A stretch of DNA of 63,992 bases, the filler included, from an uncultured Methanosarcinales archaeon (GTDB taxonomy: Archaea; Nanobdellota; Nanobdellia; Woesearchaeales; CAZKBD01): the NCBI GenBank assembly GCA_964550945.1. It is 5 parts of 5 records of this genome, joined end to end, with 100 filler letters (N's around TTAATTAATTAA, not from the genome) between each part and the next. Parts side by side here need not be neighbours in the genome. Positions count along the whole stretch, not along the records: positions 43,138 to 56,815 come from CAZKBD010000049.1; positions 56,916 to 63,992 come from CAZKBD010000087.1; 3 more parts are not named here. One strand, written 5' to 3'. Made by a program: the position numbers and the translations under genes. The notes under the pieces were generated by a model that ran no database searches, was not told the origin of the DNA, and saw nothing but the letters and a program-made list of their open reading frames with translations. Of this stretch, positions 4,101 to 57,558 are shown piece after piece (positions within the stretch are counted from its first letter, which is position 1; the number at the start of each line of letters is the position of its first letter).

Positions 4101-5470
4101 TTACTTCCGGTTGTGACTGTTATTAAATAAGCGCCACTGCTATTTGTTGTTGCATTTTGGTCAGCTATTGAAACCCTTGCACCTGAAATTACAGAGCCGG
4201 TGCTGTTATCTATTGCAAAACCTTCTATTGTTCCTGTTGTTGGCTCGAGTGATATGTTGTGGGTTGTGGTGCTACTTGAGTTTATAACTGCAAAGTCTAT
4301 ATGTGTTAAATATCCGCTTAAAAGAGCCGCAACTGTAAAGTTTCCTTCTATTACAGTGCCGTTATAGGATCCAGTTGAATTAGTGGCAAGGGTTGTTCCT
4401 CCTACATGGATCATTACATTAGCTAATGTTGAGTAAGTTCTATTGTTAATTACAGTTCCTTGTATAGTTCCATTGCCTAATGTAGTTTCTCCAGCCGATA
4501 CGCCAGTGAAGGGGGTCATTGTGATGTTATGTTGTGTCACTCCATACAGCGTAATATTAACTAATGATGTATAAGCAAGATAGCCAGTTTTAATGGCAAC
4601 AAGATATTGGTAGCCAATAGGAGCTGTAATATTGTAATGACCAGAGCCGTTTGAATAGTTAAGCTGGCCCCCTATGCCAATTGTTGCGTTTGTTATTGTT
4701 TGGTTTGTGCTGTTGTCTGTCACTATTCCTATAACAAAACCATCACCCAACGCTCCAGTTCCATAACCTGCAGGGCATTCATCATTTGGGTCTGTGAAGA
4801 AATAATAAGTAGTTGCGTTTGGAGCAGGAACTATCATCTGATAATTTATTGTTGAGTTGCTGTATCCTCTCTGGATAGTGGCTATGCGCGTAAAAAAGAC
4901 CAAATCCCCGCTGACATTTAATATCCCCAAATTAAAAGCAGTGCTTGTTGGATCATTATATTTTTTTGTGTATGCAAGTGGGATATTACTTACATTAGTA
5001 GCACCTATCAAGACAGAACCGTTTTGCGTGAAAGTGTTTGCGGCAGAATCTGCTGAGGAAGGGCTAAAACTAAAGTAATTATCCACCCATGCAGCTGTCG
5101 CTGGTTGTATTGAAGACCAGTCCAAAGTATCTGGATCAACAGTAGTTGCATAAATCTCGTGGTCTATGCTTGGTTCGAGGCAATTGAAAATAAGATGTTT
5201 TGGTTCCATGCCACCAGGGGAAGCTTGTTCGCTTTGTTGTTCATTGTAACCTTCCTGCATTAAGCCTAGCCCATAGAACCCTTGCCAGTTTGATGTCTGC
5301 CATTCTTGTGTAAGGATGATAGTGGTTATGTAACCAGCCTGAGCAGGAACTGAAACTGCATAGCCAATAAATTTCTTTAATATTATTGCTCCAAATGCTG
5401 CTGCGACTATCAACAGGAGTATTAAGATTACAAATATAACCTTATTATCAAGCAATTGTTTATTTCTCAT
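1148..5470 (-). CDS. Membrane-anchored surface-repeat protein (carboxypeptidase-regulatory-like beta-sandwich repeats) fused to a cytoplasmic HerA/FtsK-like (DUF87) ATPase
   Basis: N-terminal TM; about 5 repeats of G.I.G.V.D..T...I..A.I.I.G...SNS.G.Y...GY..Y; Gly/Ala/Thr linker; second TM (WMILVGIAALATGTFIFMIY); Walker A GASGSGKT, IVFDPS, Walker B LLVYDG, REFRKWGVGLILISQ. Start placed at ATG 5470. Confidence 0.85.
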   Translation of the reverse strand: MRNKQLLDNKVIFVILILLLIVAAAFGAIILKKFIGYAVSVPAQAGYITTIILTQEWQTSNWQGFYGLGLMQEGYNEQQSEQASPGGMEPKHLIFNCLEPSIDHEIYATTVDPDTLDWSSIQPATAAWVDNYFSFSPSSADSAANTFTQNGSVLIGATNVSNIPLAYTKKYNDPTSTAFNLGILNVSGDLVFFTRIATIQRGYSNSTINYQMIVPAPNATTYYFFTDPNDECPAGYGTGALGDGFVIGIVTDNSTNQTITNATIGIGGQLNYSNGSGHYNITAPIGYQYLVAIKTGYLAYTSLVNITLYGVTQHNITMTPFTGVSAGETTLGNGTIQGTVINNRTYSTLANVMIHVGGTTLATNSTGSYNGTVIEGNFTVAALLSGYLTHIDFAVINSSSTTTHNISLEPTTGTIEGFAIDNSTGSVISGARVSIADQNATTNSSGAYLITVTTGSNFIIGTKAGYENYAGNVTIIPGTTIQHNLTMVSTGIGAGALFENGTIEGYVRDSSTSAVIANATITVAGVSNGSNSNGFYNLSMIEGTHNLVATKSSYNNYIASVNVSANNITAHNISMSVFVSGGASGNGTLKGVVKTTSGSVLSGVAISIAGKSTSSNSSGEYNLTVVEGTHNLVATRSGYNNYIYNVTINTSQITYHNITMNTSVTAAAGTGAGTGAGAGTGAGAGAGAGTGIGITQRAIITQPSEYADHEISVKKILKKMRVGSFLNVPIEVSNYRANSITLFLSVDGTVASLVKLDKTTMTIDSGTSDEFLVTLLGNADPGVYEGNIIISGDIDEKIPIDVVMYGEDKLPIEALLIKLNLLESKVYTGDVLRYRVDIQNLLREEEYEISLNYKLTNEETGEEFPIDSEKVVVQTSFSLIKNFQIPQDFQTGDYILSLEARYLDLSSTHTAVFSIIEPFYKYAVFGVIPLWMILVGIAALATGTFIFMIYKKRKSEKQRYKMTVDTSQLPKAGPRSAYVGLVAETSTKTYFDLDKFQIHTLIAGASGSGKTVVAQTLVEEAISKNVAVIVFDPSATWTGFLRKCQDKNMLNIYSKFGLKKGEAKSFNGNVKQINDGRELIDFHKYMKAGEINVFVINKLDTKSTETFVANAIKEVFHANLPESPELKYLLVYDGIHTLLPKFGGSGKVFVQIERATREFRKWGVGLILISQVLNDFPPQVLANINTEIQLRTRDEGDLKRVSESYGGEILKSLVKAGIGTGMVENAAYNRGKPYFISFRPVLHSLQRITDDELDNYNKYNEVIDDMEDQLQQLKKEGIDTFDLELELKLSKDKVRSGNFNMVNIYLDSLKPRIKTQWDKLGKQPKKRETKLADEEEPERELKKAEEKDKTKEEKKEEIKNIKEDTAETPEEEAKEAQKAPKEVNDVKELVNNINNLLKSNKNDEAKSLYVKVMGIYKSLPKEYKPQIFKDCVEIQKKLAG
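3400..3470 (-). repeat. Gly-Ala/Thr low-complexity linker with an 18-bp tandem unit
   Basis: cctgcaccagcgcctgtg repeated; encodes AGTGAGTGAGAGTGAGAGAGAGTG. Confidence 0.8.
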
Positions 5471-5678
5471 TTTCGTTTTTAGCGATTCTAACAATCTCGA
5501 TACCGCCTTGTTTCCCTGGAATAAAAGAAATCACTGAGCCTTTCTTTACATTTAGGATATTGGCCCACATAGCAGGCAAAGTCACTATAAACTGCTTATT
5601 TTTCAACTGCTGTATCTTAATCTGATTCTGGCTTAATCTTCTGCCTTTTTTCTGTTGCTGGTTGATTAGTTTATTCAT
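5460..5678 (-). CDS. AbrB/MazE/SpoVT-like small DNA-binding protein
   Basis: KIQQLKNKQFIVTLPAMWANILNVKKGSVISF fits the swapped-hairpin pattern; overlaps the start of the downstream gene. Confidence 0.7.
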   Translation of the reverse strand: MNKLINQQQKKGRRLSQNQIKIQQLKNKQFIVTLPAMWANILNVKKGSVISFIPGKQGGIEIVRIAKNENEK

Positions 5679-43576: not shown

Positions 43577-46180
43577 TTATTCATTCCAGGGGCTTCTTTG
43601 GTCCAGGATCATCCATTCAGGCGTGGTGATTGCAGTGTATGATTCTCTTAATTCTTCGCTTACTGTAAAATTTTTAGGATAATTTACCTTCCAGATCTTC
43701 AATGGCCCCATCAGCCTGCCTCCATAAATAGCTAAATTATAAAGGTCGCTATCATCATAGGCTAACTCAAAGCCAGGGATATCCTCTTCAAACAAGAATA
43801 GCCTGGTCCACATTGCATCAAGGCCTTTTCTTGAAACGTATAATAAAGCGCCGTTCTCCTGCTGGTATCTCTGGTTTAGATAGTAAGGAAAAATCCTTAG
43901 GCAGCCTTTTAATCCGGATTCATTGAAAAATGTCTTTTTGCCATCATCATACATGCACTCAACTGGAACATCTGTTCTCTCGCCTTTATAATAGATTATT
44001 GCTTTTGGCTGCTTAATCTCCATTTCATAATCTGTTTCATAAACCGGCACTATAAACCCGGCTATTACGGTCTCTTTTTGCGGGAAAATCTTTTCTTTAT
44101 AGCTAAAGTCTTCGTCTAAAGCTGTTCCGCCTTGGAAAACATAATCTGTAAGGTTTCCTTCTTTGTAAGTTGACTGTGAATTCATCATATAAGTCCCGAT
44201 CCATGAGAATGTATCATAGTTAGAATCTGAGCCAATGCTTGAGTAAGCAGCATATTTGCCAATCTCATCTGAGATTATTAATAGATGGGTTACGTTATGG
44301 ACATACATAAATTCAAAAGCTTCAGTAGAATTTTTTCCTGCTAAAACATGCCTTGCCATCAGATGGTTCCAGTAGCCAATATAGTTTCCTCCGTCTAAAA
44401 CAGTGGCCCTTTCTCCTAATGTCTGCACTGCATATCCATAATCCCACCAATGGGCAAATACTGCGTTTTTTTGTGTTTTTTCTCTAACCCATGCCATTGC
44501 ATCCTGCCATTGCTTGTCTGTGCTTGAGCCAGTATAGTATGCTTGTGTTAGGCTAGTTTTTGCAAATACAAAATAAATAGGGACTGAAATAAGGATGATG
44601 AGGCATACAACAACAACTTTGTAAAATAAATCCTTGAATTTTATTGCTTTTTCAAATAAGTATGATACTAAAAAAGCTGCCATCACTGCTGTGATTGGAG
44701 CAAGGACAAAGAGCAATCTTATGCCTCCTCGTGCAGTAATAACCAATATAACAAACCAGGCAAATACAAAAAGATAGTTATTGCTTAACTCTTTTATTGA
44801 ATTGTATGCGCCCTTATTCTTGTAGTAAAAATATATAAGAGAATAGAATATTATTGCTGCAAAAGCGATCAAAGAGCCAAAAAACAATATTTGCGAGATA
44901 GCATTATCTCCATTAAACAGGGAATATTGAGATATCCTGCTGAAAATATAGCCGCTTAAGAAGAATGCATAAGCTAATGTTAAAGACTTTCGCCATTTGC
45001 CTATTGGCTCAGTTAATAAATAAAACATCACAATAGAGCCAAAAAAGAAAATCCAGAAATATGACAAGCCAAAAGTGTCTGTCCAATCGGTAAAATAAGG
45101 CTGCTTTGACTCTGCGACAGTCAACATTACCCTGCTTCTTCCCATTGGGTTAACCATCTGCTCTTTAACTTCATTGAATTGCTCAAAGACAAAACTAGGC
45201 ATGATCAACAAGCCAAGAATCAAAGCGATAATCAGAATTGATGCTATTGAAAGCAGATTTGTTGGGAAATTTATTTTTAGCTTTATTTTATCCAAAAGGA
45301 TTTTGCCTATAAAAAAGGCCAAGATCATTAAAGGAATCGCAAAATAGATTGATTTGACAATCTCAATAAAACCCCCATATTTTTGCGTCAGGAAAGATAA
45401 AATGAAGATTAGTGTGAAAAGCCAAGTTGCGTAATTGTAGGCATCCTTTTTTTCAAATTTGTTTATCACAAAAAGGACAATATTAAATAATGCTATTATC
45501 AAAAGCGCAAACTTAAATCCTCCCCAGGCTAAGCCCATCAAGCTAGTGGTTATTCCGGCTGCAAATGCGAACAAAAGATCGTATTTTTTTGCCTGCCATG
45601 CCTTAACATAAAGATAGAATGTAACGAAAAGCAAGAATAATGCCAATGATTCCTTATCAGAAAATCCTGCAATTGACCTGTAAAGGTAAGCTGGCGTCAC
45701 TGCTAAAATTGCAGCTGCTATCAATGCTATTTTTTCATTAAACAAGGCTTTGACAAGAAAAAAGAAGACTATAAGGCCTAAAACAAAGAAGATTACTGGA
45801 TAAATGATATCTGTCTTTTCTAGCGTCAGATTTGGGAAAAAGATAATCAAAAATTTATGCAGGTATACGATAACATAACTTAGAAAGACGTTTTCTGTGC
45901 TAGGATCGTGGCCTAAAGGGACATACCTCATATTATCCCAAGCCATCAATGAGCCATGATTCAGGATGTGTTTAGCAATCCTCATGAAATAATAGCTGTC
46001 TAATTCTATCAGATATTTTCCCTCAAGCAGAGGAAGGTTTCTTGTCCTGATAAAAGCCCCAAACCAGAGTATAGCAACTAATAAAGGATAGATTAAAAAT
46101 CTAATTTTGAATTTTTTAATCCAGCTTTTAATCCAGCCAACTAATTTTGCCCTTCTTTGGTCTAAAACAGCGTCTACCAT
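43577..46180 (-). CDS. aglB: Oligosaccharyltransferase (STT3/AglB)
   Basis: ELDSYY, AGFSDKE, TVAE, WWDYG; about 13 TMs. Confidence 0.93.
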   Translation of the reverse strand: MVDAVLDQRRAKLVGWIKSWIKKFKIRFLIYPLLVAILWFGAFIRTRNLPLLEGKYLIELDSYYFMRIAKHILNHGSLMAWDNMRYVPLGHDPSTENVFLSYVIVYLHKFLIIFFPNLTLEKTDIIYPVIFFVLGLIVFFFLVKALFNEKIALIAAAILAVTPAYLYRSIAGFSDKESLALFLLFVTFYLYVKAWQAKKYDLLFAFAAGITTSLMGLAWGGFKFALLIIALFNIVLFVINKFEKKDAYNYATWLFTLIFILSFLTQKYGGFIEIVKSIYFAIPLMILAFFIGKILLDKIKLKINFPTNLLSIASILIIALILGLLIMPSFVFEQFNEVKEQMVNPMGRSRVMLTVAESKQPYFTDWTDTFGLSYFWIFFFGSIVMFYLLTEPIGKWRKSLTLAYAFFLSGYIFSRISQYSLFNGDNAISQILFFGSLIAFAAIIFYSLIYFYYKNKGAYNSIKELSNNYLFVFAWFVILVITARGGIRLLFVLAPITAVMAAFLVSYLFEKAIKFKDLFYKVVVVCLIILISVPIYFVFAKTSLTQAYYTGSSTDKQWQDAMAWVREKTQKNAVFAHWWDYGYAVQTLGERATVLDGGNYIGYWNHLMARHVLAGKNSTEAFEFMYVHNVTHLLIISDEIGKYAAYSSIGSDSNYDTFSWIGTYMMNSQSTYKEGNLTDYVFQGGTALDEDFSYKEKIFPQKETVIAGFIVPVYETDYEMEIKQPKAIIYYKGERTDVPVECMYDDGKKTFFNESGLKGCLRIFPYYLNQRYQQENGALLYVSRKGLDAMWTRLFLFEEDIPGFELAYDDSDLYNLAIYGGRLMGPLKIWKVNYPKNFTVSEELRESYTAITTPEWMILDQRSPWNE

Positions 46181-46218: not shown

Positions 46219-48054
46219 TCAAGTTACAACAAAATTAGCGTCATTTGAAGAGGCTTTCCTGCCTTTGTCGTCTGTTGCTTCTATAAACAATGAGTGGCTG
46301 CCTTGTTCAAGGTTTTTTAGATGAATAACATTCTCTGCCCCAACAACCGCTTCTCCAGAGCCTTTTTCAACATTATCCACAAAAACCCCATAATTGACAT
46401 TTTTTGCTTCAAAATGGCTGACAGTAAACCTAACCTCTATTTCGTTAGTTGACGTTATGTCACCTTTATTGGGGCTTGTTATATCTATTCCAAAGTTTAC
46501 TGTCCCATCAACATGAAAGTCAACTGCATCTGAAACGCCGTCAACAAAATCGCCTTTTGCCTCGATATACATATTGTAATCACCATTATCTAAGGTTATT
46601 CTTTCTTCAGTTAATTTGCCTGATGCCGCTGTCCCTTCAATCCCTTTGCCGCCATTTATGTAAACTTGATAGTCAACTGCCGGGCTATAATTGTATTTGA
46701 TAATAAACTTTATATCAAATTCGTTCTGCCAGAACCACTGCCCGTCTTTTACTTTTAGATCAATCTTTGGGATTAAGTCGGCTTCTTCTTTCTTTTTTCT
46801 ATCATTATACTCTTCAAAGGTGTTGGCAACATTGCATACATCAAAAATAGCTTCATTGAGAGTAAATGGGCTGTCAAAGAAATAAACTGTTTCAGGGCTT
46901 AATGTGAATATATTCCCTTCGCTGGTTGAGAATCTTCTGCATTTTTTTTCGCTATAATCGAATATTATCGCTAAATCCTCTGCTTTATCAAAAAACTTGC
47001 ACTCTGATTTAATTGCGCTTAAAGCATCTGAACCAAGCGTAAAGTCTTCCTCAATAATATAATAGTTTACCTGGTCAAACTTCTCTCTAAAGGGGGATAT
47101 GACTGCAAAATTATTGAAGTTGTTGTTTACATCAATCTTTAACCTATCAACCCCCCATTTTCTTTTATATTGGTTGCCAAGGAATATTATGTCTCTTTTC
47201 TTGCTGCTGTCCCACATTGTAAGGGGTATGCAATTAGAGTTAATGGATACTACAAAGCTGGATATCCTCTCTTTTAGGTTAATTGTTCCATCTTTCTTTA
47301 CGATGGCTGCATCTATTGATATTTTTCTTAAGCCACTGGCTCCTGTTAATGAAGAGCTGTCCCATTTATTTCCATATATCCCGTCTTCATTATTTGCATC
47401 ATCATGATTCCCATCATCATAAAGCGCTAATGTTGCGGCTGTTGAATTGTTGTCTTTTAAAGTTATTTCAACATCACTTATTTCTGAAGGCTCGTCTATC
47501 ACATATTTGATATAGAATAGGGTTCCTTTAGCACCGGCTATTGGTTCAACTAATACATATCTTAATCCGTAAGGGTCATCAGGATCGAATACCATATTGC
47601 CATTATCTAATCTGGCTCCAGAAGCGCCCTCAAATACATCCTGTATGCTGGCATCAACATTAACCCTTATCCCTGTATCTTGCCTTACCAAAAAAGATGG
47701 TGTGGGTATTACGCATTTTGGCACTTCAGGGCATTCTTTTTTTATGAATTTATAGCCATACGCCTCGCAATTTGACATTAGATAATTGCTTAAGCAATAT
47801 CCTTCCTTGTCAATGCAGCAGCCAATATTGCATTTATCAATCTTATCGCAGCTGGTTGCATCATGGAAAACCCCTTCATAGCATTTCTGCTTTGTTGTCT
47901 CTTCGCAGAATCTTTCGCAGCATCCTGAGCCTGATCCAGTTGCCATTCCTGTTATGCTGCTAGGCCGCTTAGTTTTGTCAATAAATGACATGCCTAGGCT
48001 TAGGATTAGGACAATAAAAAAAGCTATGATTGCATATTTAATATTCTTTTTCAT
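46219..48054 (-). CDS. Membrane-anchored Cys-rich surface protein with Ig-like domains
   Basis: N-terminal TM then SITGMAT; GCC...C repeats; LYDDGNHDD...DGIYG motif; an M64-peptidase-like segment without HExxH. Confidence 0.75.
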   Translation of the reverse strand: MKKNIKYAIIAFFIVLILSLGMSFIDKTKRPSSITGMATGSGSGCCERFCEETTKQKCYEGVFHDATSCDKIDKCNIGCCIDKEGYCLSNYLMSNCEAYGYKFIKKECPEVPKCVIPTPSFLVRQDTGIRVNVDASIQDVFEGASGARLDNGNMVFDPDDPYGLRYVLVEPIAGAKGTLFYIKYVIDEPSEISDVEITLKDNNSTAATLALYDDGNHDDANNEDGIYGNKWDSSSLTGASGLRKISIDAAIVKKDGTINLKERISSFVVSINSNCIPLTMWDSSKKRDIIFLGNQYKRKWGVDRLKIDVNNNFNNFAVISPFREKFDQVNYYIIEEDFTLGSDALSAIKSECKFFDKAEDLAIIFDYSEKKCRRFSTSEGNIFTLSPETVYFFDSPFTLNEAIFDVCNVANTFEEYNDRKKKEEADLIPKIDLKVKDGQWFWQNEFDIKFIIKYNYSPAVDYQVYINGGKGIEGTAASGKLTEERITLDNGDYNMYIEAKGDFVDGVSDAVDFHVDGTVNFGIDITSPNKGDITSTNEIEVRFTVSHFEAKNVNYGVFVDNVEKGSGEAVVGAENVIHLKNLEQGSHSLFIEATDDKGRKASSNDANFVVT

Positions 48055-48055
48055 T

Positions 48056-50281
48056 TTATTTGTAGGTTACAGTGCATGTTATACTGCACTTTTGGCAGAT
48101 TAGATTTGTAAGCACGTCGCATTTTTTTACCTTAGCGCAAACGCTATAAGTATGGCCTCCCTGAAGCAATTTTTTGCTTGCAGGCTGAAACATAGTGACC
48201 AATGAATTTAGAGGAGTTATTGTATCCCTAAGAGCAGTTAAAAAATCAGGCTGCTCTCTTAATCCCAGCTCATCTGGATCATTAATAATGCTTCCAGTGT
48301 CATTATAACTAGCTAAATATGATTTAGCGCCGCCTCCTTCATCAGACAAAGACTGTATGAGATTAGGAATGCTGATTACTAATGCAGTAATATCCCCTAT
48401 TGCATCTATGATGGTCTGGATGGTATTAGTAATAGGGTCTGCTGGCGCGATAGTGCATGATCCTGTTCCCTTGTCCTCTTCTTTTTCAAGCTCCACTTTT
48501 CCATCACATGAAGGAGTAAATTCTACACAATCTTTATCAGCGCTACCTCCTGCCAGAATACCTCCACCAGCTCCTACTCCTGTAGCTATTCCAGCTCCAA
48601 CATTACCTCCTGCCAAAATAGGCAGCCCACCTACACCTAACGAAAGAACACCAAAAGTCCAGAGCCCTGTAACGAGCAAAACCAAAGCTAAAAAGCAAGG
48701 CCATTCTGGCGTAAGCGTGCTCGTTGTTTTAGTGCTTATAGTGCTTTGCACTCCACAATCAAGCAATGTATAGCTTGTAAAGCCATTCAGCTCTGTCCAG
48801 CAATAATTTTGAGAGTAAACTGGATTTGAATCAATCGCTTTCCATGGATTATCTCCGTGCTTTGCTAATATGCCGGTAGGCCCCATCATTGGGCTGTAAT
48901 CTCCATCCCAGTGAAGGTTTAATCTCATCGGCCTTGTTGCAATAGTCCCTGTTGGCTCGATATTATACACTGGATGAGTCAGTATTCTTATGGCGCTGGA
49001 GTCAAAACCCTGCATTAATCCTGTATCGCCGTCATGGGACTGTGTCGCCCTATACGGCACTGCAGCAGACTGTTCATAGCTTTGCTGAATTGTTATCTCG
49101 CAGGCTCCTTTGGGCATATAGAGATAAGTCATTGGCCTGATAAATAATTCAGCATCCCTGTCAGCAGAGTAGATAACTATGGGAGCATAGTTAGGTATAA
49201 AATAACAGTTTGGCTGTAAATCAACTGATCTTGTCAGAGTAGAAGGGCCATTCTTAAATGCAAACCTAAATGTATAATTATTCTCACCAAAAACATAGTT
49301 TTGCTTGTCTTCTATCCTGTAAACTATATATTTGCCGTCTGATGTTGGCTCTGTGCTGACTGTAAAGTCTGCTGTATTAACTCCTTCTAATGGCTTGTTA
49401 TGGTCAAAATCCGGATCAAAGAACTTATTTTCGTATTTTGATGCCAGCTCCCATATTTTCCTGAATCTTATATCATATCTTATGATAAACTCATCATAAC
49501 TTTGCTCAACCTCTTTGTATTTTATCAGGACAGGGAAAAATACCCTTAGGGTTGCATCGTCTATTCCGTATGTCACCTCAGAGCTAACACTGCCATAAGT
49601 TATAGAAAAGCCTTCTTCTGAGCTGTATTGCGAAAAGGTTAGGCAATCTTTTAGGTGATTGTTCACATAAGAGGTCAATCTTGTCCTGGTTTCATTTAAC
49701 AAAGGCTGTATATTTTTTTCATTCAGATACCAGAATGAGGTATCCTGGTATTTTATGTAATCAGGAATATCAATATACCCTCCTTGCAGCCCTATTTTTT
49801 TAAACCCCTCGTAGCCTACTCGGTCAATACAATTCTCAATATAGATCCTGACAGGAGTTATTTTAGTGTCCACTATCTGAGTTTTGTACATCTCAGTTGC
49901 AGCCATCTCTTTGGACATTGCATAGATATAGATTGTGACTCCAATTGCAGTAAGAATTATTATTCCATAGATGATAAACAGGGCTATTTGGCTTTTTTTA
50001 TTTTCAAACCTGAATAACAACCCCAATAACACCAAACAAATCAGATATATCAAGTAAACATAAGAAAAACCATGGTGTTTGTTATCAACATCGTTATCTA
50101 AAGGCGTAACTTTTGAAGATAGTCCGTTTTCGATTAAATTTTCACTCTTAAGCTCGCTTGAGACCAAGGATGCCTCCCAGGATAATCTATCAGCAGCATA
50201 GACAGGGATCATGACTATATTCAGGATTACCCAAATCGAGACAAACCTGTTCGCTATCCGGGTTATCTCATTTATTGCCAT
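48056..50281 (-). CDS. Surface protein with shared leader and internal prepilin-like KKSQ|IALF site
   Basis: See findings; Y.ENC....IGLQGGY block follows the pilin-like helix. Confidence 0.75.
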   Translation of the reverse strand: MAINEITRIANRFVSIWVILNIVMIPVYAADRLSWEASLVSSELKSENLIENGLSSKVTPLDNDVDNKHHGFSYVYLIYLICLVLLGLLFRFENKKSQIALFIIYGIIILTAIGVTIYIYAMSKEMAATEMYKTQIVDTKITPVRIYIENCIDRVGYEGFKKIGLQGGYIDIPDYIKYQDTSFWYLNEKNIQPLLNETRTRLTSYVNNHLKDCLTFSQYSSEEGFSITYGSVSSEVTYGIDDATLRVFFPVLIKYKEVEQSYDEFIIRYDIRFRKIWELASKYENKFFDPDFDHNKPLEGVNTADFTVSTEPTSDGKYIVYRIEDKQNYVFGENNYTFRFAFKNGPSTLTRSVDLQPNCYFIPNYAPIVIYSADRDAELFIRPMTYLYMPKGACEITIQQSYEQSAAVPYRATQSHDGDTGLMQGFDSSAIRILTHPVYNIEPTGTIATRPMRLNLHWDGDYSPMMGPTGILAKHGDNPWKAIDSNPVYSQNYCWTELNGFTSYTLLDCGVQSTISTKTTSTLTPEWPCFLALVLLVTGLWTFGVLSLGVGGLPILAGGNVGAGIATGVGAGGGILAGGSADKDCVEFTPSCDGKVELEKEEDKGTGSCTIAPADPITNTIQTIIDAIGDITALVISIPNLIQSLSDEGGGAKSYLASYNDTGSIINDPDELGLREQPDFLTALRDTITPLNSLVTMFQPASKKLLQGGHTYSVCAKVKKCDVLTNLICQKCSITCTVTYK

Positions 50282-50480
50282 TCTTTTTGCCTATCTCAAT
50301 TTTTCCTTGTTCATTTAGCTTAAAACAGAGGATTGTTCCTTTAGCTATTCCAGTCAAGCTAGCTAATCCCTTTGGAAATGTCATAATCAATTGAGAATTA
50401 TTTAATTCCTGGACCTTAACTTCATTTGGCCCAAGCCTTTTTCCTTTTATTCCCTTTGGATTTATTTTTTTGTTTACCAT
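50268..50480 (-). CDS. AbrB/MazE-like small DNA-binding protein
   Basis: VKVQELNNSQLIMTFPKGLASLTGIAKGTILCF; overlaps the downstream start. Confidence 0.72.
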   Translation of the reverse strand: MVNKKINPKGIKGKRLGPNEVKVQELNNSQLIMTFPKGLASLTGIAKGTILCFKLNEQGKIEIGKKNGNK

Positions 50481-50703
50481 TAATATTAATCTTATTATTA
50501 GGTTAAATAATAATGTTATTATTATGTTGAATAATGGGGTTATTATTATATCAACTAATAATACTATTATTATGATTAATATTAAGAATATTTAAATGTT
50601 TCTGTTTAAACACGCAATTTACTAATTTCCTAATCTAAGATTCACTTGAGCGCGCAAAAGAATTTGTCATTGAGATGAAAAAATTAGTTGCTTATGTTTG
50701 AGT

Positions 50704-50940
50704 TATACTCACTCGCATAAATAATTGAGCGATATCACAGAAATCCTACCACTCTGGACTATAGTCCAGAGTTTGCTCGCAACTTCGTTGCTCGGGTCGG
50801 ATTTCTGGGATACCAGAAAAAGATAACTCCGTTTTACTCTCCGCACTATCGTACGGAGTTATCTTTTTCTTAGTATATGCTCGTTCGTAATAGCAAAGAA
50901 CCCACTATGCATTGCTCAATTATTGGTGTTCTTTGCTATA
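50704..50940. mobile_element. Composite nested hairpin (MITE-like) element, long copy
   Basis: Shares flanks with 55124-55216; carries two inserted TA-ended inverted repeats. Confidence 0.65.
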
Positions 50941-51080
50941 TAATGGATTATATTGAGAATAATCGAATGCTCTTATTGCAGCTAACTAGCACTAATACAC
51001 CCCAAAGCCTACACATTGTGATGTTGTGATTCCTCCTTTTGGAGGCGCTGGCGGAGATGGAAGAGCCTTTGCCGCCTAAC

Positions 51081-54000
51081 TTAAGTTTTTTTAACCCTCA
51101 GCTTTGCAGTGAGCTCTTTCCACAGCAGTTTCTGTTCAGCTGTTAAGCCATCATTTGTCCAAGAAGTAGATGGGTATCTTGTTTGGGTCTGTACATGCTC
51201 TGTAGTAACCCCTCCAGCTGTGGTTTTGTTGCAAGAAATTGGCATGGTTTCAGTGCTTCCAATAATAGGGACAATCTTGATGAATGTGTATTCATTCACT
51301 GTATCACAAATTCCGCTGATAAAGTTCCTGTATTCTACTGCTAGATAGGTTGTAAATTCGCTGCTAGGATTTCCTGGATTTTTCGCAACTCTTTCGATAA
51401 CACCATCAATCTCTTTGTTATCTTTTCGATCCATATAGATTCTTTTGAAGTCTTGTGCGTATGCAAAACTATAACTCTCTAGTTCGCCATCTAAGAAAGT
51501 TCCATATTGAACTTGTTCTCTTCCTAACAGATATTCGATTATTGTGTTCCATAATCCAATCCACCGATCAAGAGCAGGTCTTACTTCAAGATTGGATATT
51601 GCGCCTTTTGAGAAGATTACAGACATAGTATAATTGTTATACCATACATTAGCTAGACTGCATCGCTCATAGTTAACTCCAGTAGCTCCGCTGCAGTCGG
51701 TTATTGCTGCTCCTGTACTGACTATGTTTAAGAAGGTGAATCTGGTCCTAAATTCTTCAGCTATTGGTTTATTAAGCGCTACTCCTAGAAGCACTTTTTC
51801 TTGATCGCTTCCTGGATTTAGCCTAAGCACGCAGATGTTATTGATCAATCTTGATAATGGGTTGTTTGATTTAGGATTGTCTCTTGCAAAATCTTGGGAT
51901 TCAGAGCCGTAATTTAGTGATTCATTATAATTATCGCAAAATAATGTGAAATCTGTACTGCTTCTAGAATAGTTTAATAATTTTTGCGCAACCAACTTAG
52001 TCCTTGATGTCCATGTTCCATTCTCGCAATAATGGTCGCCGATAAACTGGCCGTCATTAATGCATTGGATTTCATTATCCTTCCAATCATCATAATTCAA
52101 ATGATTTAAATCAGAGAGATTTCCATTATCAAAATTCTCTTTTTCCTCTGGTTTTACCAAGCACTGGCTGTTATAAGGGCAGTAGCCTTTATTTCTTTTG
52201 TCCCATGTATATTTAACTAAACTCAAACTCCAATTTCCATCTATACACCTCTGCCCATCTATAAGGTTAACTGAATCTCTGCCTGGAAAAGGAGGATCTA
52301 ATGGATCGCGATTCTGCTCTGGATAGCATCCTGTTCCGTTCCAGCATTGCTCTGGAGTGCAGCATTCTGTTTGCTGCAAAGAAGGATCATTCCATGGGAT
52401 AGTTGTTGCCTGAGTCCTGTTTTCATTAGTTGGCAGCCATTCTCCTGTATAAGAGCAGAAAATGCCGTCATAGGCTCCATTCCCATAAATAGATCCCTCA
52501 AATCTGCAGTAATCATAATCAGTCCTTGGATAGTCTGGGTTGTTCCATGGATCATTCCTGCAGAAATGCGACCATTTGTTGTCTGAAAGGCAGTAAAAAG
52601 GATAATTGTCTATATCTACTTCTGCTAATAGTCCAGCACTCCTAGGAGAGATACAACTCCTGTCTGCACAACATTCATATACGTGATTTGCACCATACTC
52701 ATCATCGCATAAATACTCGTGATACACCCCACCATATGTTGGCGCAGCTATCAGGCCGTTTAAACTAGACAGCCTTATTAACCCGTTTGATGCGGTTAAT
52801 ATTCCGTTATTACTGGCAAGATTACATGTAAAATTAGTTATATTTGCATCATCTGAACTAAACGCAACAGCAAATGTATAAGGCTCGTATGCATATCTAT
52901 AAGCTGCATGGGCATTAGTTGAACTAGAGAGGCTTAATAAATATTTTTTATAAGCTCCCGTGCCTGATTTAAGAATATTGACTGATGGGTCATTTAAATT
53001 TTTAGCTTCACAGCAAATTCTTGATGGATAGCCTTGATCTAAGGTAGGTGTGGGGTCATTAGGACGACCTGGAGTGCGTAACTCTCCAGTATAAATATAC
53101 CCTCCCTCCATTCCTGATGGAATAAGGCCATGAACCGAATATCCTCCATCTAGTTGCGGCCCTCCTCCTGGAATGATTGCGCCATAGGAAGCATAACTTA
53201 AAGCTGCATGGGCATTATCCTGCCTTGATAATCTAAAAATTTCGACTTTATTACCTTCAAGCATACTACAATCTGAATCACTAATTTCACACTCTAAACT
53301 ATACCTGTTAGGTGGTTGGCAGAGTAAACTCCAGTTATACTTCCCAAGCCCACACTTTTCCATGTGAGCATTTATTCTGTCTGATAATGATACTACACAT
53401 ACAGAAGTGCTTATATTAATTATAGGTGGAGTGCCATCACACATGAACAATCCCTTCTGCCCACCCGATACTACATCATAATAAGTAGAATTTGGACACT
53501 CTGAACGGCCTATTGTTCCTATATTAACCGAATGCTTATAGTCATACCAATAAAAACTCGGATAGCTAGGATCTATGTTGCAGAAGAACTTATTATCAAT
53601 AGCGCTGATTGTACCGCATTCATATTTATCATCCCCGCAGCACCCTATAGGATCAATATAATGCCCAGGTATTGCGTTGCATAACGCCTCATTAGAATCA
53701 GGATCGTTGTTTGCAACAGTTGCTGCCATGCTTTTAGCTGCAGGAAAGTTAACGCTGCCCTTAGCTCCCTCTTCCTTCAAGGCAGAGTTTATAGAAGAGT
53801 TAAGAGAGAATTTAATATCTTTAGTATCAAGACTGCTGCCAGACGGAGTTATATTAAATTTTGGATTCTCTTCTGAAAAACTCCCACAATACTGTTTTGT
53901 AAATCTATGAATTGTACGATCAGCATCGCCGCTTGGTGGTGTTGAAACTCCCCCTTCAAAATCAATGTATTCAATATCCCACGATGAAGGTAAAGTCACA

Positions 54001-54563
54001 TCTATCCATCCATCATAACAATCGTCAGGATTCCATGAGCAGTCTTCCCCTTGGCAAGCGATATGCAAAGAAACTTCAAAAGGCACTCCATCAATCAATT
54101 CGATATTATCCAAATCTTCTGGTGCGGTTATCTCCATATTAACTTTAGCGTCAATAGTATTGTCGCATCCAGAAATAAAAATCAGCATTGCTATTGAAAA
54201 TAAAAAAATTATTTTTTCTGCTTGCAGATTCAAAGCATAAAAAGAGAATAAATAAAAAAGGATTATGAAAAGCAAGAGAAAGAAGTAGTCTAATTTTAAA
54301 TTATGTGCATTATTAGTGGTTATATCATCAGCTGCCTTAGCTGTACTCTCCAAATTGTTCACATAATTAGTGCTTTGGTCAGTTATGAAAGAAAAAGGCG
54401 TTATTTGGCCGAATGTTCCTGCGATTATATTTTTTTTGCCAGTATCTGATTTGATTATATAGTTTTCTTCATCCAAAGCAAAAGCCAATGGCGCCATAAT
54501 TAGGTTTATAGCAACCCAAATCAATAATACATTATTTGAAAATGAAAAGATTTGTTTTTTCAT
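51081..54563 (-). CDS. Large Cys-rich surface protein with shared leader and internal lipobox-like ISGC
   Basis: 1160 aa; repeated LS..xNAH motifs and many Cys; YCENG.W.SRTK..A..L. Confidence 0.8.
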   Translation of the reverse strand: MKKQIFSFSNNVLLIWVAINLIMAPLAFALDEENYIIKSDTGKKNIIAGTFGQITPFSFITDQSTNYVNNLESTAKAADDITTNNAHNLKLDYFFLLLFIILFYLFSFYALNLQAEKIIFLFSIAMLIFISGCDNTIDAKVNMEITAPEDLDNIELIDGVPFEVSLHIACQGEDCSWNPDDCYDGWIDVTLPSSWDIEYIDFEGGVSTPPSGDADRTIHRFTKQYCGSFSEENPKFNITPSGSSLDTKDIKFSLNSSINSALKEEGAKGSVNFPAAKSMAATVANNDPDSNEALCNAIPGHYIDPIGCCGDDKYECGTISAIDNKFFCNIDPSYPSFYWYDYKHSVNIGTIGRSECPNSTYYDVVSGGQKGLFMCDGTPPIINISTSVCVVSLSDRINAHMEKCGLGKYNWSLLCQPPNRYSLECEISDSDCSMLEGNKVEIFRLSRQDNAHAALSYASYGAIIPGGGPQLDGGYSVHGLIPSGMEGGYIYTGELRTPGRPNDPTPTLDQGYPSRICCEAKNLNDPSVNILKSGTGAYKKYLLSLSSSTNAHAAYRYAYEPYTFAVAFSSDDANITNFTCNLASNNGILTASNGLIRLSSLNGLIAAPTYGGVYHEYLCDDEYGANHVYECCADRSCISPRSAGLLAEVDIDNYPFYCLSDNKWSHFCRNDPWNNPDYPRTDYDYCRFEGSIYGNGAYDGIFCSYTGEWLPTNENRTQATTIPWNDPSLQQTECCTPEQCWNGTGCYPEQNRDPLDPPFPGRDSVNLIDGQRCIDGNWSLSLVKYTWDKRNKGYCPYNSQCLVKPEEKENFDNGNLSDLNHLNYDDWKDNEIQCINDGQFIGDHYCENGTWTSRTKLVAQKLLNYSRSSTDFTLFCDNYNESLNYGSESQDFARDNPKSNNPLSRLINNICVLRLNPGSDQEKVLLGVALNKPIAEEFRTRFTFLNIVSTGAAITDCSGATGVNYERCSLANVWYNNYTMSVIFSKGAISNLEVRPALDRWIGLWNTIIEYLLGREQVQYGTFLDGELESYSFAYAQDFKRIYMDRKDNKEIDGVIERVAKNPGNPSSEFTTYLAVEYRNFISGICDTVNEYTFIKIVPIIGSTETMPISCNKTTAGGVTTEHVQTQTRYPSTSWTNDGLTAEQKLLWKELTAKLRVKKT

Positions 54564-54569
54564 AATTAG

Positions 54570-54998
54570 TTAAATTTCGCAACAATAAACATGCAGATCA
54601 TCACCTTGGGCTCTTCCACCAAAATGTTTTACTCCAGCCATAAATCTACCGTTACCACAGAGGCATTCCTGCCCCAGGCTTTTACAATTTATCCAATTAC
54701 ATTCACCATAACTATTATAATCTGCTATTATATCATCCCATACAATTAGATCAAAAGGATTACGGATTGTGATGCTGCGAGTATCCAAATGCCCAACAAC
54801 CTCTAGACCAGTGTCGATTTTGACTTTATTTGCTGGAAAGGTAATTGGCCCCAGATCAAGGTCATCCTTTGTATGGCCAAATACAGCTGGGTTGCCAGCT
54901 GCTACAACCAATAGCCCAATCGCAAAAACCGCAATCAAAGCAGAAAGGATATACAGATGTTTTTTCTTAACATTAATCTCAATTTTCATATAGACCAC
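54570..54998 (-). CDS. Small membrane-anchored Cys-rich protein
   Basis: KKKHLY + TM + P..FGH; C-terminal C.NGRFMAG...YCC. Confidence 0.75.
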   Translation of the reverse strand: MVYMKIEINVKKKHLYILSALIAVFAIGLLVVAAGNPAVFGHTKDDLDLGPITFPANKVKIDTGLEVVGHLDTRSITIRNPFDLIVWDDIIADYNSYGECNWINCKSLGQECLCGNGRFMAGVKHFGGRAQGDDLHVYCCEI

Positions 54999-55123
54999 CT
55001 TTTTTTATAATTATATCTATCAATACTCTAATACCAAGCTAACGCATATTTAAAAGTTTCTATTTTATTTTTTAAGCTGTTTGGTTTAAAAAATAAGAAG
55101 GATTATTTGAGTAAAGCATGGCC

Positions 55124-55216
55124 ATACTCACTCGCATAATTAATTGAGCAATACCTGCTCGTTCGTAATAAGCAAAGAACATAATCTATTGTTCAATTAT
55201 TTGTGTTCTTTGCTAT
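55124..55216. mobile_element. Hairpin (MITE-like) element, short copy
   Basis: ATACTCACTCGCATAA.TAATTGAGC...TGCTCGTTCGTAATA.GCAAAGAAC...GTTCTTTGCTATA, shared with 50704-50940. Confidence 0.65.
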
Positions 55217-55262
55217 AACTATTAGTTAAAATGGCATTCATACGAAATTGAGAAAGTCGGAT

Positions 55263-55334
55263 TCATGCATGTTTCATGAATTCTTCTCTGCTAATCTGGA
55301 TATCATGTTTTATGGCCTTATTTAGAGATGGGCT
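55263..55334 (-). pseudogene. Possible HicA-toxin C-terminal remnant
   Basis: Translates to SPSLNKAIKHDIQISREEFMKHA* directly after the Fic stop; no start codon. Confidence 0.3.
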
Positions 55335-56585
55335 TTAGGATAGCTTCTCATTGATTGCTTTGAGATTAAACATAATAATCTGCTGGAGCAACTGACTGAG
55401 GTTTTTGTCATCCCTTCTCTTTGCCCCTTTTGTGGAGAATACATACGCCTCAAGCAAGCCTAGGGGTATGTCTAGAATCGGGATATCATTCATAAGCAGG
55501 AAATGAAATGTGATTAGCCTCGTGGTTCTGCTGTTTCCGTCAAAAAACGGATGGATATGCTGAAATTCATTGTGTAAGTAGGCTGCGAAGCCAACTATCT
55601 CACCAAGAGCATGTTTTTTCTTCGCATTAAAATCATTGTATCTCTTGAGCAGTGCTGCAACCATGCTCTCAATCTCAGTATAATGAGCTACCTTGTAATC
55701 TGCATTCCCCCTGATAATAACCTGATCATCCCTAAATCTGCCAGCAATCTCTTTTTTATGCTGCATTGCAATAAAGTGATAATTCAGTATGTTTTCTTTA
55801 GTGATAGCAGAATCATCATGGATATTCTCTATCATTTTCGAGAAGGCTTTTTGGTAATTCTCAACCTCATGGATAGATTCCATGCTTAAGTTCTCAGGAA
55901 CAATCTTATCCCTAAGAAGTTTAAATGTCTGTGCTAATGTAATTGGGTTGCCCTCGATGCTTAAGCTGTGGTGAATGAATTTAATCTGGTATGTTTCTGT
56001 CAATTCCTGGTATTTTCTTTCATTTGAGATTCTAAGCTTCTTAAATTTGGAAAGCTCTGATTGAATCTCATCAAAATACTCGTCTTCTTTTTTCTTGGTT
56101 ACCAGATGATGATGCCCGTAATATGCAGTAAGGTCGCCAAGAAATGAATTATAGGGAACTACAGCTTTGAATGGCTTTCTTGAAAGCACCAGCAGAAAAC
56201 CATTTTTCTCAAGAATGCCAGAAACTTTGGAAACGGTTTTCGCATTCAAGCCAAGGTCTTTCATTCCGAATGATTTTTTTAAGAAGGCTTTGCTCAGGTA
56301 TTTGGCTACAGACTCATCAAATAACTCATTATAATTAACGCCATTCTTTATACAGTATTTTAGCATATCATAAAGATGCTGGTGCTTAGCATTCATGGTT
56401 GCCTGGTATCCATATTTATTTTTCTCAATGAGCTTCATCTCAACAAGGGTGTCAAGTATTTTTCGAATCCTCTGGTATTCTGTTTTTTTCTTCTTAAAGG
56501 CTTTGACAATATCTATGCTGCCCTTTGGATTGCCGCTCTGGTATAATTCAACAAAAACATCATATTTTGTTACCATATCAACCAC
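55335..56585 (-). CDS. Fic-domain protein with N-terminal winged-helix region
   Basis: HPFFDGNSRTTR Fic motif; SLSIEGN inhibitory helix (class II arrangement). Confidence 0.9.
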   Translation of the reverse strand: MVDMVTKYDVFVELYQSGNPKGSIDIVKAFKKKKTEYQRIRKILDTLVEMKLIEKNKYGYQATMNAKHQHLYDMLKYCIKNGVNYNELFDESVAKYLSKAFLKKSFGMKDLGLNAKTVSKVSGILEKNGFLLVLSRKPFKAVVPYNSFLGDLTAYYGHHHLVTKKKEDEYFDEIQSELSKFKKLRISNERKYQELTETYQIKFIHHSLSIEGNPITLAQTFKLLRDKIVPENLSMESIHEVENYQKAFSKMIENIHDDSAITKENILNYHFIAMQHKKEIAGRFRDDQVIIRGNADYKVAHYTEIESMVAALLKRYNDFNAKKKHALGEIVGFAAYLHNEFQHIHPFFDGNSRTTRLITFHFLLMNDIPILDIPLGLLEAYVFSTKGAKRRDDKNLSQLLQQIIMFNLKAINEKLS

Positions 56586-56712
56586 CTAATTCGTACTGCT
56601 TAATAAATCTTCCTATTTGGTATAGAAAATACAAAATAATTGTACTTTTTATACTAAATATCTGATGTTGCAGCGCATACTATAATTGATATCCCTGAAC
56701 TCACCTAAATCT

Positions 56713-56754
56713 GTCAAGAACTGCGGACTGAAATCCACAGCGTGCAGTTCTTGA
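56713..56754 (+). mobile_element. IS200/IS605-like palindromic mini-element
   Basis: GTCAAGAAC-TGCGGACTGAAATCCACAG-CGTGCA-GTTCTTGA. Confidence 0.45.
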
Positions 56755-56815
56755 GCATGAACCAAGAAAGGAAAAATTAATTCTTAATTTTTCCAATTCT
56801 TAAATAGTTCTAACT

Positions 56816-56915
56816 NNNNNNNNNNNNNNNNNNNNNNNNNNNNNNNNNNNNNNNNNNNNTTAATTAATTAANNNNNNNNNNNNNNNNNNNNNNNNNNNNN
56901 NNNNNNNNNNNNNNN
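56816..56915. other. Artificial contig linker
   Basis: N-run with TTAATTAATTAA. Confidence 0.97.
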
Positions 56916-57558
56916 CTATCACAGGAGAATCAGCAAAGGACTCTTTTACAACAATCTCTCCATCGCTATTCTTCTTCTCTAAATCAACAGCAAACACATA
57001 ATCAACTGAGCAGGGAATGTCATAACCAAGCTCCTTCCTGCTTCCAACATCAGTTGCTTTTACTCTAACAGAATCCTTTAAGTCAGACTCCAGTATCGTG
57101 AGATGAGAAATGCAGTTAGAGCTGTTAATGCTGGAAATCGCTTTATAACCAAACAATAAAGAAGCAGCAATAACCAAAGCGACTAGAATATACTTTATCA
57201 CTTCCATATTCATCTGCGATTTAGAATTCAGCTTGACTACAAACACTAATAAAGCAAGTAGAAAAAACCATGCCAAATAAATCAAAAATAAGTTTTTATC
57301 TGTTTTAACCGGAATATTGTCTTTTTCAGGCAGATTATTATTTTCTCCATTGAATAAGGCAATTTTCTCTTCTTTATTGCTAATAAGATTATTATTTATT
57401 GGAGCTATTTTAGCAAACATCCCTATTTCATTACTTTCTTTATCAATCTCTTTAGAAACAAAGCCTAGCTCATCTTCATAAGCAACAGCAGCTGGAAATA
57501 AGAGAATATTGCAAATTACCCAAGATAAAACAAAATATTGAGCAATTTTGTTAAGCAT
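56916..57558 (-). CDS. Surface protein with shared leader and internal prepilin-like SKSQ|MNME site; truncated by contig end
   Basis: WVICNILLFP...GMFAKIAP...YLAWFFLL...SKSQMNMEVIKYILVALVIA; ATG at 57558. Confidence 0.75.

Follow-up and report, generated by a model that had tools for sequence, protein, structure and literature searches.

Here we describe a family of N-terminal leaders that precede otherwise unrelated surface proteins of an uncultured archaeon and most likely mark them for a separate glycosylation route, since they travel with a second, dedicated sugar-attaching enzyme: a paralogue of the oligosaccharyltransferase (OST) AglB, referred to as AglB-L in the following. Three of the leaders lie in a 63,992-nucleotide stretch of DNA (the window), which joins five contigs of a 1.97 Mb, 92% complete genome (GCA_964550945.1, GTDB order Woesearchaeales; hereafter G000). 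Woesearchaeota are very small and probably live as symbionts. The leaders have a recurrent architecture, are under selection, are portable between proteins, and are co-distributed and linked with AglB-L. They constitute a real, apparently undescribed tag family, whose candidate cognate enzyme is encoded in the window itself; the function that we propose is deduced from genome comparisons. The question addressed is which enzyme modifies which protein in archaea with several OSTs, and this choice of enzyme becomes directly testable with a tag that is portable and has a candidate cognate AglB.

The leader family and its two forms

The original prediction was that three open reading frames, starting at window positions 50281, 54563 and 57558, share an N-terminal module of two helices and a conserved loop in front of internal signals and unrelated bodies. 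All three indeed lie on the minus strand and contain helix 1, the loop, a second transmembrane helix (TM2) and the internal signal as described; the 50281 and 54563 genes are on one contig (C49), and the 57558 gene is on another (C87), whose end truncates it. Their first 65 residues score 68–86 in pairwise comparison, as against a maximum of 44 for the other 138 signal-peptide N-termini of G000, and for each leader pair, none of 276 control comparisons reaches the observed score. Between the bodies, there is no BLAST match below E 0.36. The leader–body junctions of 50281 and 54563 are spanned without difference by contigs re-assembled from public runs, which may be the source sample.

A hidden Markov model of the three leaders finds the module on 19 G000 proteins, along with a twentieth match, on contig C93, that lacks the loop motif, and further members occur in other genomes. 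A regular expression for the motif matches 18 of the 19 leaders and none of the 138 control signal peptides. From G000, its relatives and matches among 1.84 billion representatives (57, of which one, P0050, is false), 104 leader rows were collected; three without motif (L059, L017 and C93) were dropped and six more were too short to type, leaving 95 typed rows.

As had been suspected, this is no described family: none of the 19 leaders matches Pfam or NCBIfam at the curated cut-off, the best scores being E 0.11 and E 0.016, respectively, from single members only, and an ESM Atlas search returned nothing at 0.8 or more. A search of PDB sequences yielded only a chance likeness to the TM1 loop of OSCA/ERD4 (E 2.4), and a similarity of TM2–TM3 of the 57558 protein to Ost5 (E 0.018, below the cut-off) is likewise taken as chance. 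Identity with ESPR (extended signal peptide region, PF13018) was rejected, as there is no match and helix 1 possesses both an h-region and a terminal A-x-A. The SipW-cognate signal peptide (TIGR04088) matches in none of five leader-positive genomes and in both controls (B. subtilis and H. volcanii), and a mobile DNA element was dismissed for want of a DNA-level repeat family and in view of selection at the protein level. In the literature, we found no paper on this leader or its link to AglB, with the proviso that family tables in supplements could mention it; a term search of 10.64898/2026.05.13.725050 gave no AglB, leader, pilin or signal peptide.

All typed leaders begin with a signal-like helix containing a near-invariant proline, followed by G-x-F-[GSA]-[KR]-[IV]-x-P, and the distance from the helix-1 proline to the motif phenylalanine is 23–31 residues (mode 25–26). 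In type A (51 of 95), a variable spacer and TM2 separate the motif from a second, complete signal; judged by eye, these second signals are mostly class III-like, with about five lipoboxes and about eight of the signal peptidase I (SPase I) type. Type B (44 of 95) has no TM2 and ends with E-[KR]-x-x-L-L ahead of the body, a patch whose E is conserved in 61% and whose leucines in 74% and 68% of 31 rows. W-x3-N in helix 1 is found in 46/51 type A versus 2/44 type B leaders, but because the rows are related, its association with TM2 is no independent test. The predicted hairpin is thus present in the three window proteins, but TM2 and a second signal occur in only 9 of the 19 G000 copies and represent one of two leader forms. 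Similarly, the loop motif is conserved, but its consensus is G-x-F-G-K-[IV]-T-P, of which the GLSSKVTP of 50281 is a degenerate copy, and its final proline is conserved in only 71%. A motif-like GSYGKITPL without helix 1 also occurs internally in G000 C1:68-3145 (frame residues 643–667, E 0.64).

Helix 1 has the features of an SPase I signal (a basic n-region, an h-region, a proline, and small residues at -3 and -1), with the proline in 94–97% and a last-position alanine in 63% (type A) or 74% (type B), and is probably cleaved by this enzyme. It had been taken for a lasting helix; its P-x-A-x-A end looks like that of a cleavable signal, and persistence is not necessary. The internal class III-like signals agree with published rules (PMC13705601; PMC4858521; PMC3387779), which comprise a basic residue at -2, a small one at -1 and a hydrophobic helix after the site (PMC3387779). 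K-S↓Q is a more likely cut than the KSQ↓ first assumed. The sites lie at residues 96–98 and 113–115 and not at the N-terminus, where untagged homologues have them. The 54563 protein has the hallmarks of a lipoprotein, with a lipobox cysteine after a hydrophobic helix. As these class III, lipobox and SPase I signals are 90–130 residues inside the chain, N-terminal predictors would miss them.

The secretion genes of G000 comprise one SPase I (found with TIGR02228 and missed by PF10502), one A24 prepilin peptidase, four PF00437 ATPase matches, Lgt and LspA. Bacterial-type LspA (SPase II) and Lgt score above the Pfam cut-off in 5/5 genomes of this archaeal order (G000, G139, G026, G009 and G015; G000 loci C5:45606-45998 and C3:18596-19315) and in 0/4 archaeal controls. 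No report of their presence surfaced in our literature search, and according to a 2012 account, no archaeal Lgt or SPase II was known at that time (PMC3387779).

In 16 close pairs, the ratio of nonsynonymous to synonymous substitution rates (dN/dS) is 0.15 for the motif, at a dS of 0.50, and 0.20 for the body, at 0.54; with its low ratio at a normal dS, the motif is under purifying selection at the level of the peptide. An AlphaFold model of a type A leader has three helices and a low-confidence loop (predicted TM-score 0.39) and is uninformative on packing. The bodies that follow the leaders range from 180 to 8836 aa and include pilin-like proteins, Ig/PKD/cadherin/TSP3/YadA adhesins, an S8 protease and a GH9 domain.

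Portability and distribution

A profile of 66 leader rows matches 33 of the 401 genomes of the order. Besides G000, 11 of 400 genomes, from seven families, match through the motif (best E 2e-11 or better); a further 21, the unpublished G207 among them, match with helix 1 only and are counted as leader-negative. Because the search scores at most about 15–20 candidates per genome, leader copy numbers are lower bounds, and a negative means 'not found'. G065, which was covered almost whole, has 10 copies. In a sample of 250 genomes of the phylum, there were three single weak matches, all plain signal peptides. In a 28-genome tree based on RpoB, the leader-positives appear in several places, beside leader-negative sisters.

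The leader is gained and lost among orthologues. As to the original question of whether some of these start directly at KKxQ, they do: a 52% identical homologue of the 50281 protein begins MRKKSQ. Homologues of the commonest carrier were found in 26 of 30 mostly leader-negative genomes, and of the 27 distinct genes whose start can be read, 26 start at M-KKxQ or close to it. The remaining one (L166, G021:C36) has a relic hairpin, with helix 1 and TM2 before KGQ and the loop motif deleted, in a genome in which AglB-L was not found. Where an operon is conserved, the gene that bears the tag varies from genome to genome, the 611-aa window gene being one of those concerned (Table 1). Translation from an internal start just before the second signal would have made the leader an artefact, yet a Shine–Dalgarno-like internal start is present in only one of nine type A genes.

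A second oligosaccharyltransferase and its gene island

G000 encodes two STT3 proteins: the housekeeping AglB on contig C124, and the window copy, two genes below 50281. The latter matches PF02516 (E 1.6e-25) and carries motifs of the WWDYG, D-x-E, T-x-x-E and D-x-x-K types, which presumably have their usual catalytic roles; a pattern scan with the full protein gave nothing relevant. Matches with 36–56% identity, full-length or partial, are found in 10 of the 11 other leader-positive genomes, and there are matches in 19 of 389 leader-negative ones; where titled, the records with related AglBs are mostly Woesearchaeota or Nanoarchaeota. In the AglB tree, 16 leader-negatives form a clade of their own (support 0.988) without the C-terminal tail T[TN]PEW-x-x-L. 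The unpublished G182 and G244 are not in this tree and count only in the tally of 19. Among AglBs with a readable end, the tail is found in 10/10 leader-positive versus 0/14 leader-negative ones, and in G065, it reads TNYW.

For an out-of-sample check, we collected loci around AglB relatives, 79 from metagenomes and 80 from genomes, and could parse 77 of each. In the metagenomes, leader genes lie within 10 kb of 5/7 tailed versus 0/70 untailed aglB genes (0/34 untailed loci of at least 10 kb), and a tagged gene is directly upstream of aglB in four of five newly seen tailed loci. In the genomes, the counts are 4/8 tailed versus 0/69 untailed, the eight being genomes already counted.

The gene after aglB-L codes for a membrane-anchored protein with a polysaccharide-deacetylase-like fold; it is present in G000, 7/11 other leader-positives and 0/389 leader-negatives. 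The typical order is a tagged gene, aglB-L, the deacetylase-like gene, a GT4/MraY-type transferase, glycosyltransferases, often a flippase-like gene, and more tagged genes. Gene order in relatives suggests that the end of C49, C30 and the start of C36 form one such island in G000, which would comprise tagged genes, aglB-L, glycosyltransferases, a flippase-like gene, giant proteins and pilin-like genes.

Leader identity between genomes correlates with AglB-L identity (rho 0.65, Mantel p 0.006, nine groups) and less with RpoB identity (rho 0.28, eight groups). With a crude control set, tagged G000 bodies of at least 400 aa have a higher density of N-glycosylation sequons than the remaining exported proteins (medians of 1.89, n=14, and 0.77, n=68, per 100 aa; p 0.026), and tagged G000 bodies are also richer in Cys. 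None of the 86 long tagged proteins is devoid of sequons.

A co-distributed peptidase, which the original prediction had envisaged, was not found in our searches. A transglutaminase-like protease occurs in 11/11 leader-positives but also in 13/19 leader-negatives, and G000 has the single SPase I and A24 peptidase given above. In G000, the membrane-anchored transglutaminase-like protein is encoded at C77:134-790; it occurs in 24/30 genomes of the order, and in two f9 genomes (G139:C65 and G269:C42), a short tagged gene is found 2 kb away from its gene. SecDF (31/31 genomes) and Lgt with LspA (5/5, including two leader-negatives) were likewise rejected as readers, as was a SipW-type system, given the lack of TIGR04088 matches in five leader-positive genomes. 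A proteome subtraction (G000 and G065 minus a complete leader-negative genome; 260 kb of G016 covered) gave 184 shared membrane proteins; the profiling covered a minority of these, and further genes may be co-distributed with the leader.

Proposed mechanism and alternatives

We lean towards the view that the leader is a cis-acting tag on the outer membrane face, which would be read co-translationally by the dedicated N-glycosylation island, by means of AglB-L and possibly its deacetylase-like neighbour. Helix 1 would send the chain into Sec and probably be cut by SPase I. The G-x-F-G-K-[IV]-x-P patch would then emerge first, at the fixed distance from the membrane that the observed spacing implies, and could dock on AglB-L, or its neighbour, at the translocon, whereupon the remaining chain would receive the island glycan instead of, or besides, the housekeeping AglB glycan. 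That the loop might be a recognition site had been predicted, and with its low motif dN/dS, it is the conserved part and probably the recognized one. In type A, TM2 would bring the chain back to the cytoplasm and thereby, as foreseen, restore the topology of the internal signal, which could then work natively and shed the tag. We propose that this adapter is needed because the N-termini of pilins and lipoproteins are set by enzymes, so that these proteins cannot bear a tag there; ordinary secreted proteins carry it directly, ending at E-x-x-x-L-L. The hairpin had originally been thought to serve sorting or delayed maturation; the co-distribution of a second AglB and its neighbour points to glycosylation instead. 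The relic in G021, where the hairpin remains, the loop motif is lost and no AglB-L was found, is consistent with such a role.

In a fuller version of this proposal, which we advance tentatively, these archaea would operate a second N-glycosylation system that is directed by leaders. The portable tag could be grafted onto any surface gene, with the transmembrane adapter added where the protein is a pilin or a lipoprotein, and would attract an AglB paralogue that moves horizontally, either by the T-P-E-W tail of this enzyme or by its active site. The cell could in this way choose a special glycan coat protein by protein, on adhesins, hydrolases and pilins, which might serve, for instance, to recognize hosts or evade viruses.

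Several observations weigh against a glycosylation tag. The leader genes and aglB-L share one island, so that co-transfer alone could produce both their co-occurrence and their correlated identities. The leader-positive AglBs lie outside the 16-member clade and form a grade and not a supported clade, and the AglB of leader-negative G001, split by an assembly gap, falls outside the untailed clade at an unresolved position, with its tail off the contig. When only the motif is compared, the correlation of its identity with that of AglB-L is not significant (rho 0.44, p 0.09) and is weaker than that with RpoB (0.53). G269 (87% complete) has 14 leader matches and AglB-L was not found in it. At 0.40 sequons per 100 aa, the 50281 protein is sequon-poor, a 180-aa tagged protein on C16 has none, and many sequon-rich secreted G000 proteins are untagged. 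Finally, the residue after the motif lysine is I/V/L/T and not Pro, but Ser/Thr follows at +2 in only 37/66 leaders, so a pseudo-sequon is not required.

The leader could alternatively be an address label that brings pilin-like subunits together with adhesins and hydrolases in a single place, such as a pilus base or host contact, with AglB-L being just a fellow resident of the island. Such a label would suit the range of tagged bodies, the many tagged genes in pilin-like operons and the sequon-poor tagged proteins. We nevertheless consider it unlikely: the tag switches genes within the same operon between genomes, the same systems contain untagged orthologues, and the two genes found to track the tag are of the glycosylation type and not pilus genes. 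Retention of proteins on the cell surface after their release is another conceivable purpose, for which the leader would act as a dockerin-like or self-assembling anchor. Most type B proteins are without a C-terminal membrane anchor, the motif has a beta-strand-like pattern and positive genomes have several copies. This is very doubtful, however, given that the internal signal of type A would cut the tag off the body, that two G000 type B proteins possess their own C-terminal anchor and that the loop is unstructured in the AlphaFold model.

A kinetic device akin to ESPR or an arrest peptide, which slows export or tethers large proteins at Sec, would need no dedicated reader. The ribosome tunnel is 30–35 residues long, and the tight spacing sets the final motif proline approximately one tunnel length behind the signal; the often very large size of the carriers would also fit, and ESPR acts as such a device in autotransporters (PMC8151025). 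We find it improbable because SecDF, present in 31/31 genomes, leaves the confinement to AglB-L genomes unexplained, carriers of 180–290 aa exist, type B has a second conserved patch after the motif, and the final proline is incompletely conserved. Hardly credible, and already largely refuted, is a neutral by-product, whether of a repeat in the DNA, of an upstream frame called in error or of initiation inside the gene, at KKxQ. Untagged orthologues exist, and 50281 has TTG codons with GGTG upstream, 7 and 9 codons before KKSQ; yet a DNA-level repeat family is absent, the motif is under the selection described above, the same architecture recurs in eight families, and 8/9 type A genes are without an internal start.

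If the glycosylation tag that we favour is confirmed, it could be used for targeted glyco-engineering.

Other features of the window

The positions of the leaders, their parts and aglB-L are given in Table 1. The first 210 residues of the 50281 body are predicted to form a 70-residue helix and a beta sheet (pLDDT 92); this model has no Foldseek match at E 0.001, and VIA Z scores are at most 6.0, on the helix only, with no pilin named.

Table 1. Leader-bearing genes, leader parts and associated genes in the window
Position	Strand	Feature	Remarks
43577..46180	-	Second AglB/STT3 oligosaccharyltransferase 'AglB-L', candidate tag reader	DSY, DKE, TVAE, WWDYG, DEIGK motifs; C-terminal TTPEW tail
46219..48054	-	611-aa surface protein between tagged genes and aglB-L; leaderless here, G139 orthologue with leader	
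48056..50281	-	741-aa surface protein; type A leader (about residues 1–95), then class III-like signal and body	
49988..49996	-	Internal class III-like site K-S↓Q of 50281 protein	A24 peptidase in genome
50000..50071	-	TM2 of 50281 leader, limits approximate	
50102..50125	-	Loop motif GLSSKVTP, degenerate copy (50281 leader)	
50204..50233	-	Helix 1 core W-x3-N-x4-P of 50281 leader, SPase I-type signal	
51081..54563	-	1160-aa Cys-rich protein: type A leader, TM2, lipobox-type signal	
54165..54176	-	Internal lipobox ISG↓C of 54563 protein	LspA and Lgt in genome
54396..54419	-	Loop motif GTFGQITP (54563 leader)	
54489..54518	-	Helix 1 core of 54563 leader	
56916..57558	-	Pilin-like protein with type A leader, truncated at end of C87	
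57214..57222	-	Internal class III-like site K-S↓Q of 57558 protein	
57352..57369	-	EKIALF, second patch, usually the end of type B leaders (57558 leader)	
57400..57423	-	Loop motif GMFAKIAP (57558 leader)	
57493..57522	-	Helix 1 core of 57558 leader	

A winged-helix Fic protein (55335-56585) adjoins the tagged genes, and G008 has a copy of 66% identity with tagged genes on either side. A small palindromic intergenic element, similar to repetitive extragenic palindromes, is found at 50690-50960 and 55100-55240, with pieces on C1, C7, C20, C93 and C102. Elsewhere in the window, 1148-5494 encodes a 1448-aa fusion of carboxypeptidase-regulatory repeats and a HerA/FtsK-like ATPase. In G065, a 1206-aa protein with an SLT lytic transglycosylase domain (L200:5424-9041) hints at a peptidoglycan-walled partner; it has a partial homologue in G000, a class III-signal protein at C57:5824-3752.

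Relation to known systems

The leader recalls several known systems without coinciding with any of them. Leaders of ribosomally synthesized and post-translationally modified peptides are removable N-terminal segments that recruit a modifying enzyme to a variable core; here, by contrast, the cores are whole surface proteins, and reading would occur outside the membrane. Like the leader, the SipW-cognate signal peptide (TIGR04088) has about 20 conserved residues past the cut, is common to unrelated proteins and goes with a cognate enzyme, but no second signal peptidase was found in G000, and the cognate gene here is an OST.

The ESPR of type V secretion (PF13018; PMC8151025) is also a conserved add-on before a complete signal peptide of large surface proteins and is dispensable for targeting. 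It is a cytoplasmic stretch of about 25 residues that is unable to function as a signal, whereas the leader has 70–130 residues, a signal of its own, an outside loop and no Pfam match. On the enzyme side, several AglB paralogues in archaea (10.1101/2023.10.27.564410; PMC5131992) and TbSTT3A/B/C in Trypanosoma (PMC5131992) are comparable, in that a genome has two OSTs with a presumed difference in donor or acceptor. The accessible text of PMC5131992 names no substrate-side tag for any paralogue; here, one subtype tracks the leader family.

Another parallel is the pre-N segment of GRP94 (HSP90B1), which has an SRT pseudo-sequon and binds OST-A (STT3A) at the translocon (PMC12804085). In both cases, a segment just behind the signal peptide would engage the OST during translocation and set glycosylation, as described for GRP94 and as we propose for the leader. 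The comparison is one of descriptions, not of sequences. The GRP94 segment belongs to one eukaryotic protein, is inhibitory and needs CCDC134, whereas the leader is a portable module of dozens of unrelated proteins in archaea, comes with a hairpin adapter and accompanies a dedicated OST paralogue. If our proposal is correct, the leader would be a prokaryotic counterpart of substrate-directed glycosylation control, which has been described for this one eukaryotic protein.

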